This document shows, piece by piece, positions 12,480 to 25,355 of a stretch of 64,000 nt of DNA (the stretch's first letter is position 1; each line of letters starts with the position of its first letter). The notes below the pieces were generated by a model. It was not told the DNA's origin. It made no database searches and worked only from the letters and a program-made list of their open reading frames with translations. This stretch comes from Escherichia coli (GTDB lineage: Bacteria > Pseudomonadota > Gammaproteobacteria > Enterobacterales > Enterobacteriaceae), in the NCBI RefSeq assembly GCF_024298765.1, contig NZ_CP101210.1; one strand, written 5' to 3'. A program made the translations under genes and the position numbers.

Positions 12480-12685
12480 TCCTGACTTAATGCCGCAATT
12501 TTGCCAAATCGACCTGGATTAACCTCCGTCCAGGTTCGATGACCTTCTTAATACTGCTTATCTATCCGCCTGATATTGTTCAAAAATAATACTAATCGCA
12601 GTTTGTGTTAAAACGGCGGGTTAGCTTTATGAGATTATTCTTATCGCCCCTTCAAGAGCTAAGCCACTGAGAGTGCCGGAGATAA

Positions 12686-12750
12686 GCGCCGGATGGGGTA
12701 GAAACCCTTAAGCCTGTGTCGCACAGACTTAAGGGTTTTCTTATTTCTGA
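12686..12750 (+). ncRNA. rydB: Candidate sRNA (position expected for rydB) ending at an intrinsic terminator; boundaries approximate
   Basis: Strong hairpin AAACCCTTAAGCCTGTGTCGCACAGACTTAAGGGTTTT followed by TCTTATTTCT on the + strand, between ydiH and the suf promoter where rydB is mapped in K-12; strand and 5' end not verified. Confidence 0.35.
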
Positions 12751-12967
12751 ACGCTGCACTTTTTTACCTATCTCTTAAATAGTCATTTTCAATACAACTT
12801 TTTCTTTTTCATCACAGCCTTAATGCTCCTTAGATAATAATCATTATCTAACAATGAGATACCTAATTCTTAGCGTGCCTGTTAACCCACACATCAGGGT
12901 CTATGCTTATTAAAAGCAGGAAAAAAGCATGTTTTACGGTAAAGCCCCTGCGTTTGCTGGGTTGAAC

Positions 12968-12983
12968 TGATAATCATTATCAC
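12968..12983. promoter_or_regulatory. Fur box overlapping the sufA promoter -35/-10 region
   Basis: TGATAATCATTATCAC matches the Fur consensus GATAATGATAATCATTATC; about 45 bp upstream of the sufA start; the suf operon is known to be Fur-repressed. Confidence 0.6.
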
Positions 12984-13027
12984 TAACATGCTGTTTTACG
13001 CTGAAAGCGATGAAGTGAGGTAAATCG

Positions 13028-13396
13028 ATGGACATGCATTCAGGAACCTTTAATCCACAGGATTTCGCCTGGCAGGGCTTAACGCTGACACCCGCAGCCG
13101 CTGTCCACATCCGCGAGCTGGTGGCAAAGCAGCCGGGTATGGTCGGCGTGCGCTTAGGCGTGAAGCAAACGGGCTGCGCGGGCTTTGGCTATGTGCTCGA
13201 CAGTGTTAGCGAGCCGGACAAAGACGATCTGCTGTTTGAACACGACGGCGCGAAGCTGTTTGTCCCGCTGCAAGCGATGCCGTTTATTGATGGCACGGAA
13301 GTCGATTTCGTTCGTGAAGGACTTAATCAGATATTCAAATTTCACAACCCTAAAGCCCAGAATGAATGTGGCTGTGGCGAAAGCTTTGGGGTATAG
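13028..13396 (+). CDS. sufA: Fe-S cluster A-type carrier protein SufA
   Basis: 122-aa ORF recognised as SufA, complete with its own stop codon. Confidence 0.95.
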
Positions 13397-13404
13397 GCGG
13401 TACT

Positions 13405-14640
13405 ATGTCTCGTAATACTGAAGCAACTGACGATGTCAAAACCTGGACCGGCGGCCCGCTGAATTATAAAGAAGGATTCTTCACCCAGTTAGCCACCGAT
13501 GAGCTGGCAAAGGGGATAAACGAAGAGGTGGTGCGCGCAATTTCGGCGAAGCGTAATGAGCCGGAGTGGATGCTGGAGTTTCGTCTCAACGCCTATCACG
13601 CATGGCTGGAGATGGAAGAACCGCACTGGTTGAAAGCGCACTACGACAAGCTGAATTATCAGGATTACAGCTACTACTCGGCACCATCGTGCGGTAATTG
13701 TGACGACAACTGCGCGTCTGAACCCGGCGCGGTGCAGCAAACTGGCGCGAACGCCTTTTTAAGTAAAGAGGTGGAGGCGGCGTTTGAGCAGTTGGGCGTT
13801 CCCGTGCGGGAAGGCAAAGAGGTGGCAGTGGATGCCATTTTCGACTCTGTTTCGGTTGCCACTACTTATCGCGAAAAACTGGCGGAGCAGGGAATTATTT
13901 TTTGTTCCTTTGGCGAGGCGATCCACGATCACCCGGAACTGGTGCGTAAATATCTCGGCACCGTGGTGCCGGAGAATGACAACTTCTTTGCCGCACTTAA
14001 TGCGGCGGTAGCCTCTGACGGTACGTTTATTTATGTGCCTAAAGGCGTGCGTTGCCCGATGGAACTTTCCACCTATTTTCGCATTAACGCGGAAAAAACC
14101 GGGCAGTTTGAGCGCACCATTCTGGTGGCCGACGAAGACAGCTATGTCAGCTACATTGAAGGCTGTTCCGCTCCGGTGCGTGACAGCTATCATAATGGCG
14201 AATACCTCATTCATGGCACCAGTGCGCCGGACAGCGTCGGTTTGCGCGTCAGTTCGGGCTGTATTCGCATGAATGCACCGGATATTAAAGCTTTATTCTC
14301 CAGCGTGCGGACGGGAACACCGGTGAAAGTGATCAACGAACCGGTGAAATATTCCGTGGAACCTAACGGGATGCGTTATGTTGAAGTACATCGACCACTA
14401 TCGGCAGAAGAACAGCAGAACGTTCAGACAATGCCGTACACGCTGCCAGCAGGCTTTACGCAATTTAAAGACAATAAGGCTGTAGATCAGAAGTTAGTCG
14501 ATAAAGCGTTGTATCGTCGGGCAGGGTATCCGGTTGCGGTGAGCAGTGGAGCAACTCCCGCAGCCAGCAATGCGCCTTCAGTAGAGTCAGCGCAGAATGG
14601 GGAACCAGAGCAAGGGAATGTGTTACGCGCGACGCAGTAG
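13405..14640 (+). CDS. Chimeric in-frame ORF (411 aa): SufB residues 1-262 fused to the C-terminal 149 residues of L,D-transpeptidase LdtE (YnhG); apparent deletion product, junction near 14190/14191
   Basis: Translation [17 protein letters not shown]...[13 protein letters not shown] is SufB, then [28 protein letters not shown]...NVLRATQ is the YkuD-type catalytic domain and tail of LdtE; lpp follows immediately as it does downstream of ldtE in K-12; no sufC, sufD, sufS or sufE anywhere in the window. Confidence 0.85.
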
Positions 14641-17470: not shown

Positions 17471-17668
17471 TTCAGTTGCGGTCCAGTTAATCATTCTAAA
17501 TAACAACTGCTGAAATTATACGAATTTCGGTGTATATTTTAATTTATAGCGATAAAGTTATTTTTATTTTCTGCGATGAACTTCACAAATAATTGTCGGT
17601 TAAGTTAAATTTATTTCAAATGATAATAAATATCAGTTCACTTATAATTTCTTGCTTTGTGATTTTAA

Positions 17669-23619: not shown

Positions 23620-25230
23620 TTACATTTGATTAAACGAAAGACGCCGACGAGCACGGGATGCAGGCTTTACGACCGCCTGAGCTATCGCCTCACCAATTTC
23701 TGCACATGCCGTAAGTCCCTGTACGAATGGCTGGTCGTGCATCAACCAGGGCAACGCGCCGAACGCTACGCGCCCACGAATTTCTTCGGGTTGCTGTAGC
23801 GTATAATCTTCGCCAACATCAGGGATTTCATCCCCTGTTTTCTGTAATTGTTCGCGTAGTCCAGGGAAAGGAATATCTTTCACTTTAAGCGGACGCTGCC
23901 CACGGGCATCAATAAAAACGTCAAACGAGTAGCTATTGTCTTCCGTTTTCAGGACGGTGCGCGACTCATTAATTTCCATTTCGTAGTCTTCACCGAGGGC
24001 GAGAATATGAATGATTCCCGCTTCACGTAAGGCCAGTAGTCGACGAATAGACTCTGAAGGGATTGCCGCATAATTATCGATGAAAACCCGGGCAAGGCCT
24101 TTACTGAACCGTTTATGGTCGTGTTCATTCAGATGAGGAACAATTTCCTGTACGGCTTCATGCAGGCGCAGAATGACATAACGCCAGGGAACAGTATGTT
24201 TTTCTCGTTTATTGCGTTCGACTTCCTGGAGATTTTTTTCTGCCCAGTCGAATGGGTCGCGTTGTTTGCGCTCGGCAAACCAGGCTTGAGCAAAGGAATC
24301 GACATTCAGGCTTTCTAAGGCTATGCGTTGGCTCCAGTCTGGATCAGCAAATTTGATTTCCTCTACTATCAATCTAAATACCCGATCCAAAAGGCCCACT
24401 TCGCCTTTTTGAATCTCAGCATTTAATGCTTGATCGGTGACGATGTGTAAGGGCTCGTAGGGAATAGGGCAATAGAAATCGGCTTCGGGTAAAATACCCG
24501 TACGCGACATCAACGTAATATTTAGCTTTTCACTTGCGTTATCGCGGTGAAAAACGACGTGTTGTTTATCATCTTCAATGAACGAACCATGCTGAATAGC
24601 CACTGCCATTGCCGCATCCAGTCCGCTCAAGGATGTTCCCATAATACCCACGTTACACGCATCGACCTTTGCTTCCATCAGGCCTGACCACGGGCTGGGA
24701 AAATACGTTCGGGTTGCTTCTTCTTCATCAGGCCAGACGTGACCCGTGGCGATCACCGCTAAATCAAACGTCTCGCTGGGTAAATCCTGATTTGTAGCGA
24801 GCATGACGCCAGCATTTGTAATTTGCAGATCGGTAACCTGGCATGATTCATAAACAGCCACTGCAAATTTTTGCTGTCGTGCCTGGTCTACTAATCGTAA
24901 AAATTGATCGCGGAAATATTCGCCCAGCAGAATTCGCGGTAAAAACTGACGATCGTGCAAGGTTTCTTTTTTAACGCCATAACGCTGGAGATGGCTGGCT
25001 TCTTGCTTTTGTAGCCATTCGAGATACGTACAATAAATCGGCGGTATTTCAATACTGGCAATATTTGCCAGCATCATTTTTGAGTTTTCCTCATCACTGT
25101 ATGGCATCCCGACACCGGCTTCATCAGCCTGCTCGAAGATAGAAATAGAAAGTGGAGTTTGTTGCTGTAGAAGCGAGAATAAGGTGTAGATCCCCGTAGG
25201 CCCGGCACCCACAATAGCAATTTTTTTCAT
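23620..25230 (-). CDS. ydhS: FAD/NAD(P)-binding domain protein
   Basis: 536-aa ORF with N-terminal GxGxxG dinucleotide-binding motif (IVGAGPTG), recognised as YdhS. Confidence 0.88.
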   Translation of the reverse strand: MKKIAIVGAGPTGIYTLFSLLQQQTPLSISIFEQADEAGVGMPYSDEENSKMMLANIASIEIPPIYCTYLEWLQKQEASHLQRYGVKKETLHDRQFLPRILLGEYFRDQFLRLVDQARQQKFAVAVYESCQVTDLQITNAGVMLATNQDLPSETFDLAVIATGHVWPDEEEATRTYFPSPWSGLMEAKVDACNVGIMGTSLSGLDAAMAVAIQHGSFIEDDKQHVVFHRDNASEKLNITLMSRTGILPEADFYCPIPYEPLHIVTDQALNAEIQKGEVGLLDRVFRLIVEEIKFADPDWSQRIALESLNVDSFAQAWFAERKQRDPFDWAEKNLQEVERNKREKHTVPWRYVILRLHEAVQEIVPHLNEHDHKRFSKGLARVFIDNYAAIPSESIRRLLALREAGIIHILALGEDYEMEINESRTVLKTEDNSYSFDVFIDARGQRPLKVKDIPFPGLREQLQKTGDEIPDVGEDYTLQQPEEIRGRVAFGALPWLMHDQPFVQGLTACAEIGEAIAQAVVKPASRARRRLSFNQM

Positions 25231-25355
25231 TGTTACTTACCTGTACGCATTCTTTCGAATTTAGTGTTATCAGATAAGTTTGGTTGAGATTTTTAGAATT
25301 TGAGAAATTTCAGACAGGGATGAAAAGGGCGCTAACCGCCCTTGATTAAATTCTG

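Follow-up and report, generated by a model that had tools for sequence, protein, structure and literature searches.

Two Fur-box-like motifs upstream of sufA in Escherichia coli: a known Fur operator and a probable arm of the IHF site

Background

The promoter of the Escherichia coli sufABCDSE operon (PsufA) is a textbook integrator of iron (through Fur), Fe-S cluster status (through IscR) and peroxide (through OxyR together with IHF). Repression by Fur, and competition among Fur, IscR and RNA polymerase at this promoter, have been described (PMC7229158, PMC8593673, PMC4676285). PsufA has a type II IscR site in which the -35 element is embedded (PMC8561392), and its OxyR site lies far upstream (PMC8593673); in the published model, IHF bends the DNA between this far-upstream OxyR site and the promoter (PMC8593673, PMC7229158). 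With respect to Fur, Chen et al. (2007), who used a genome cutoff of 10 bits, list in their Table 4 a sufA cluster of 21.3 bits with three walkers that spans 31 bp and is centred at -53 from the ATG.

Here we describe the sufA upstream region in a 64,000-nucleotide stretch of E. coli DNA (referred to as the window, at its full length), where two motifs resembling Fur boxes are found. The sequence, position, conservation and polymorphism of these motifs come from the present analysis; Fur repression, IscR activation and OxyR/IHF looping are taken from the literature.

Methods

A Fur matrix was rebuilt from 20 K-12 sites supported by footprints or gel shifts and reproduced the published scores within about 1-2 bits. 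For conservation, sufA-promoter loci were collected from 80 Enterobacteriaceae (one genome per species). The upstream region was compared in an alignment with other Escherichia species, Citrobacter and Salmonella, and a family profile was built from 79 loci, ungapped and anchored on the proximal box.

Results and discussion

The window contains the E. coli ydiJ-menI-ydiH-rydB-sufA region. The sufA coding sequence is a 122-aa ORF on the plus strand (13028-13396) that is annotated as sufA in matching E. coli genomes, and the upstream limit of the suf regulatory region is set by the rydB small RNA gene (12646-12706, plus strand), a full-length match to Rfam RF00118 (81.6 bits, E = 2.9e-19). Both motifs are located in the ydiH-sufA intergenic region, which is 548 bp in length. 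The first-pass annotation had reported two Fur-box-like motifs with a common core at this site, and this observation was confirmed: the distal string GATAATAATCATTATC is found at 12833-12848 and the proximal string TGATAATCATTATCAC at 12968-12983, and they share the exact 12-mer ATAATCATTATC (12837-12848 and 12970-12981, 133 bp apart). These are the only two exact copies of the 12-mer in the 64-kb window; allowing one mismatch brings the number of matches to three, versus 0.22 expected. On the K-12 chromosome (NC_000913.3), the distal motif falls at about 1,764,563-1,764,581 and the proximal one at 1,764,430-1,764,448. The proximal motif is the inverted repeat GATAAT-C-ATTATC, or TGATAAT-C-ATTATCA when read as 7-1-7 (15/15). 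The distal repeat is GATAAT-AATC-ATTATC, with a centre that is three bases longer than the proximal one, and its best 7-1-7 register, TAATAATCATTATCT, matches at 13/15 positions. The 12/12 identity of the two motifs is allele-specific, in that it needs the T found at 12841 in the window; a C at this position gives 11/12.

One reading of this repeat is that it is pure coincidence in A/T-rich DNA and that the distal copy binds nothing specific. The composition of the intergenic region (40% G+C) is in keeping with this, as is the presence of moderate Fur-matrix matches within the OxyR block as well (11.6 bits at 12784). Against it, dinucleotide shuffles gave a probability of approximately 1e-4 for an exact 12-mer recurring within the 488 bp upstream (for a further 7-1-7 match of 13/15 or better within the intergenic region, the value was p = 0.006), and the right half of the distal motif is conserved, together with the adjacent core, across the family at a fixed offset. 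We consider coincidence to be a very improbable explanation.

The proximal motif, TGATAATCATTATCA (12968-12982), is a perfect 7-1-7 inverted repeat and the only 15/15 match to the 7-1-7 consensus in the 64 kb. It scores 20.5 bits on the rebuilt matrix (the leave-one-out median of proven sites is 19.6 bits), and the centre of the sufA cluster of Chen et al. (2007) converts to position 12975 of the window, which is the centre of this motif. The earlier suggestion that it overlaps the likely -35/-10 region proved to be accurate: the box sits exactly in the 16-bp spacer between the -35 hexamer TTGAAC (12962-12967, plus strand; sequence from PMC8561392, placed in the window) and the inferred -10 hexamer TAACAT (12984-12989, plus strand), which has 16-bp spacing to TTGAAC and is invariant in the alignment and in the family consensus. 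The transcription start is inferred to be near 12996. A box of 13-15/15 is found 60-63 bp upstream of the sufA ATG in approximately 79 of the 80 Enterobacteriaceae loci, the motif does not vary among Escherichia lineages, and 5,400 of 5,426 complete E. coli genomes (99.5%) carry an unchanged copy of the 30-mer at 12966-12995. The proximal motif is the known, strictly conserved Fur repressor site of sufA.

Some variation is found on either side of this box. The -35 element is polymorphic: a 30-mer that includes the -35 is exact in 4,770 of 5,426 E. coli genomes, compared with 5,400 for one placed 6 bp further downstream. E. albertii and another Escherichia lineage have TTGTAC instead of TTGAAC (position 12965), a variant that may account for the roughly 630 E. 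coli genomes by which these counts differ. Near the inferred start (12996-12999), the window reads GCTGTTTTACGC versus GCTGTTATACGC in K-12 and most Escherichia, and positions 12996, 12998 and 12999 are variable within the genus.

The region upstream of sufA resolves into five conserved blocks: an OxyR-type block, a block at approximately 12837-12861, another at 12895-12918, the -35 together with the IscR site, and the -10 together with the Fur box. The IscR type 2 activator site (12941-12965; family consensus AAtgCCCCTgCtg....gGGGTTGAA) overlaps the -35. The block at 12768-12803, identified from the alignment, has the consensus cctaTc..a.AAATAggcaTTt.ctATacAtcTTTt over 79 loci, matches an OxyR site and reads ATAG-N7-CTAT in Citrobacter and Salmonella. 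We take this block to be the OxyR site at -236 to -197 of Lee et al. 2004, who reportedly placed OxyR at -236 to -197, IHF at -156 to -127 and ORE-III/IscR at -56 to -35; if the start is taken to be near 12996, these ranges coincide with the conserved blocks. Between the two motifs, the strongly conserved block cAGGGTCTATGCTTAataAAaG (12895-12918, approximately -101 to -78 from the inferred start) has, over the 79 loci, a lower information content than the core-promoter bins and a higher one than the OxyR and IHF blocks, and two of its 24 sites vary within Escherichia. An Escherichia-specific, NsrR-like half-site, AACATGCTTTT, is present on the minus strand at approximately 12925-12935, adjoining this block and outside it. 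Within Escherichia, the percentage of variable sites is 3.6% in the core promoter, 8% in the IHF core and 9% in the OxyR block, while the regional mean is 20%. What is gained from this comparison is a family-wide promoter footprint in which the OxyR, IHF, IscR and Fur blocks have fixed offsets.

Downstream of sufA, the suf operon of this genome is broken. A 5,053-bp deletion connects sufB (at approximately codon 263) with the 3' portion of ldtE and keeps the reading frame, producing a sufB-ldtE fusion at 13366-14640 of the window with its junction at about 14192/14193. The deletion removes the 3' end of sufB, all of sufC, sufD, sufS and sufE, and the 5' end of ldtE, and there is essentially no microhomology at the junction. 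The junction-spanning sequence was found in none of 5,426 complete E. coli genomes, and an exact-protein lookup of the SufB'-'LdtE fusion in a large protein collection returned no record. As a consequence of this deletion, the conserved Fur/IscR/OxyR-controlled promoter drives only sufA and a chimeric ORF in this strain.

Directly after the end of the distal motif comes the position of an IHF core. In Escherichia this core position, TAACAATGAGATA (12849-12861, plus strand), matches the consensus WATCAANNNNTTR at 7/9 positions and starts 119 bp upstream of the start of the proximal box. The best WATCAANNNNTTR core is found at this same -119 offset from the proximal box in 65 of 76 non-Escherichia loci (a few have it at -117 to -120). 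Of 83 sequences, 45 have a 9/9 core and 24 an 8/9 core (69/83 at 8-9/9); all 76 non-Escherichia loci reach at least 7/9, while every Escherichia sequence has just 7/9. According to the alignment, Escherichia TAACAATGAGATA derives from AATCAATGCATTG-type sequences by point substitutions, and one of its 13 sites is variable within the genus. An IHF consensus scan of 12700-13010 identified no match of at least 8/9, so the assignment of IHF to this position rests on orthology and not on the E. coli sequence.

The sequence 5' of the core has the composition of an IHF-site arm. The 16 bp at 12833-12848 contain 13 A+T in the window, the same proportion (81%) as next to the -119 core of E. albertii, the single Escherichia sequence scored at this offset, and the arms 5' of the -119 core in non-Escherichia loci are 62-100% A+T. 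The orthologous arm in other genera reads aaAt.CATTATT, and the whole block (approximately 12837-12861) has the family consensus aaAt.catTatt-tATCAAtg.aTTg. This position lies between the OxyR-like block (12768-12803) and the promoter (12962-12989), and we presume that the distal motif and the IHF core position, within a predicted IHF site at 12830-12865, correspond to ORE-II, the IHF site at -156 to -127 of Lee, Yeo and Roe 2004. Based on its sequence and position, the distal motif is probably the A/T-rich 5' arm of the IHF site that would enable OxyR activation, and its resemblance to a Fur box appears to be incidental. The first-pass annotation had offered the IHF/OxyR upstream region as one possible identity for this motif; the IHF part of that proposal is supported by the adjoining core position, while the OxyR part is not, as the OxyR block is located at approximately 12768-12803.

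The other identity offered, a second Fur site, has evidence on both sides. When rated as a 19-mer, GATAATAATCATTATCTAA (12833-12851), the distal motif scores 14.6 bits with the T at 12841 that is present in the window, 12.0 bits with the C of K-12 and 10.2 bits in a lineage with G. It lies above the 10-bit cutoff with all three alleles yet is clearly weaker than the proximal box, and only the proximal box and the ydhY cluster outscore it in the 64-kb window. A score of 14.6 bits equals that of fhuF2 and is higher than those of the footprinted fur and tonB sites, and the genuine boxes of ryhB and fhuA are close to this 19-mer in sequence. Shuffles of the upstream region reached at least 14.6 bits in 0.9% of cases and at least 12.0 bits (the K-12 allele) with p = 0.03, for a chance probability of about 0.01-0.03; apart from the ydhY cluster, a score of at least 14.6 bits, as used in the shuffle test, was absent elsewhere in the other 63 kb of the window. 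Counting mismatches to a consensus had understated this motif, and the rebuilt matrix raises the estimate that Fur could bind it.

These scores favour a reading in which the distal motif is a genuine auxiliary Fur operator of lower affinity that evolved in Escherichia. With plentiful iron, Fur would exclude IHF from this site and OxyR activation would be switched off, providing a second layer of repression; since IHF covers roughly 35 bp that include the 19-mer, the two proteins would be in competition, and the T allele would bind Fur more strongly than the K-12 C allele. Two observations fit this reading. First, a weaker walker of 8.1 bits at 12839 is offset by 3 bp, an arrangement that real Fur clusters also show. 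Second, at least 10 bits are retained at this spot in all seven Escherichia lineages. The degenerate IHF core of Escherichia (7/9) counts against the IHF reading. There is also a precedent for the Fur reading in fhuF, which has two separated clusters of which the weaker, at 14.6 bits, was (weakly) footprinted (Chen 2007); feoA also has two clusters.

The pattern of variation points the other way. The auxiliary site would be absent outside Escherichia, where the median score at the orthologous spot is 5.0 bits and just 4 of 75 loci attain 10 bits, an anchoring artefact among them. Across the family, only the right half of the motif is conserved (aAt.catTatt). Within Escherichia, 4 of the 19 sites (21%) are variable, a background rate of evolution equal to the regional mean (20%), and three of these four fall in the Fur-specific left half; all four variant sequences in other Escherichia lineages, three of them changed at other positions in other species, score below the window sequence. 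The centre base itself (12841) is T, C or G across Escherichia lineages and is dimorphic at high frequency in E. coli: based on exact matches to a 57-mer, T is found in 1,979 (36.6%) and C in 3,259 (60.2%, including K-12) of 5,414 complete genomes. Furthermore, the motif lies approximately 154 bp upstream of the inferred start and does not overlap the core promoter elements, while E. coli Fur has been argued to act mainly over promoter elements (Chen 2007). For the majority of Fur ChIP peaks there is no effect on transcription (PMC4676285), and the published models of PsufA use a single Fur site, at the core promoter (PMC7229158, PMC8593673). An auxiliary operator at this position is a fair alternative but, in our view, rather unlikely. 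The idea of a second Fur site is thus upheld by a score like those of weak footprinted sites and weakened by a left half that is Escherichia-specific, polymorphic and unconstrained. We infer that IHF, and not Fur, is the protein served by the distal motif, which is at most a weak additional Fur site.

A more specific version of Fur involvement would be that the 5' arm of the IHF site was converted in Escherichia into a medium-affinity Fur operator that competes with IHF and gates the OxyR-dependent induction of suf. As judged from the sequence, we regard this as improbable. If it were true, the T/C difference at 12841 would mean that lineages such as O157:H7 and K-12 differ in how iron and peroxide induction are coupled. 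A testable hypothesis that arises from this site is that a common E. coli polymorphism alters weak Fur binding at the IHF site.

The two motifs could also be paralogues that arose by duplication of the core promoter, or the distal one could be the -10 element or operator of a second, upstream sufA promoter. With respect to duplication, the local similarity extends to ATAATCATTAT(CA)CTAACA with a score of 27, a value reached by just 2 of 500 shuffles. In other genera, however, the IHF site lines up with the distal region base for base (CATTATT-AATCAATG versus CATTATC-TAACAATG), and this orthology indicates that the distal region arose by point substitutions and not by duplication. Duplication was rejected on these grounds and because the local alignment goes no further than 17 of 19 bases and includes a gap of 2 nt. 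With respect to a second promoter, a sigma-70-like pair, ATCACA-16-GATAAT, ends at 12838, but outside Escherichia conservation is lacking for both the candidate -35 and GATAAT. This promoter was also rejected, as unsupported: the pair matches at 9 of 12 positions, and the scan produced two sites versus 1.3 expected by chance. Of all the readings considered, we believe duplication or a second promoter to be the least probable, with very little likelihood left to it.

Taking the distal motif as the probable IHF-site arm, the two motifs would be separate elements of the known multi-input sufA promoter. In this model, an iron-Fur dimer on the proximal box, probably reaching weaker flanking registers, would block both RNA polymerase and the IscR activator, because the box fills the -35/-10 spacer and the IscR site overlaps the -35. 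Under iron scarcity, Fur would come off and apo-IscR would activate sufA transcription. Upstream, IHF at the core (12849-12861) would bend the DNA so that OxyR, at approximately 12768-12803, could then reach the polymerase. The resemblance between the motifs would be a lineage-specific by-product: the right half, CATTAT, would belong to the IHF-site architecture found across Enterobacteriaceae, while the left half, GATAATAAT, would have arisen only in Escherichia. A caution that follows for promoter annotation is that the arm of an IHF site can score as a good Fur box.

Other Fur-like sites are present in the window. The second strongest is TGATAATAAATATCA (17621-17635, centre 17628), which matches at 14/15 positions, scores 20.0 bits and lies in the spacer between fumD(ydhZ) and ydhY, upstream of the start of ydhY (17884) by about 255-256 bp. 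It corresponds to the ydhY cluster of Chen et al. (2007), which is given as 19.9 bits over 103 bp without a regulation reference. The only other site in the window with at least 12 bits is AATAGCAATTTTTTTCATT (25213-25231, centre 25222), at 12.1 bits. Within the OxyR block, TTAAATAGTCATTTTCAAT (12775-12793, centre 12784) scores 11.6 bits, and so an A/T-rich site of another protein also exceeds the 10-bit cutoff.

Comparison with known systems

The architecture of PsufA is already known, and nothing observed here departs from it. The closest described system for the proximal motif is the Fur operator of the sufABCDSE promoter itself (19-bp consensus GATAATGATAATCATTATC; 7-1-7 consensus TGATAATNATTATCA), with which it agrees in both sequence and position. 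Its overlap with the core promoter is that of a repressor-type Fur site, and repression of the suf operon by Fur is documented; the proximal motif shows no difference from the known operator.

The distal motif differs from that operator in several respects. Its centre is 3 bp longer, one G/C contact position is lost (TAATAAT), it is located approximately 154 bp upstream of the start and it is not conserved outside Escherichia. Among promoters with two Fur clusters, such as those of fhuF (fhuF1 and fhuF2) and feoA, the arrangement is like that of sufA in having a strong promoter site and a weaker, distant candidate. The fhuF clusters, however, are both footprinted, have a shorter distance between them and are both situated near the start site, whereas the distal sufA motif is a candidate site. 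The remaining comparison is with the IHF site of sufA. The distal motif lies directly 5' of the position where other Enterobacteriaceae have a perfect WATCAANNNNTTR, and it is A/T-rich like the 5' arms of IHF sites. In contrast to the sites of those other genera, the Escherichia core is degenerate (7/9), and the IHF site described here is a predicted one.
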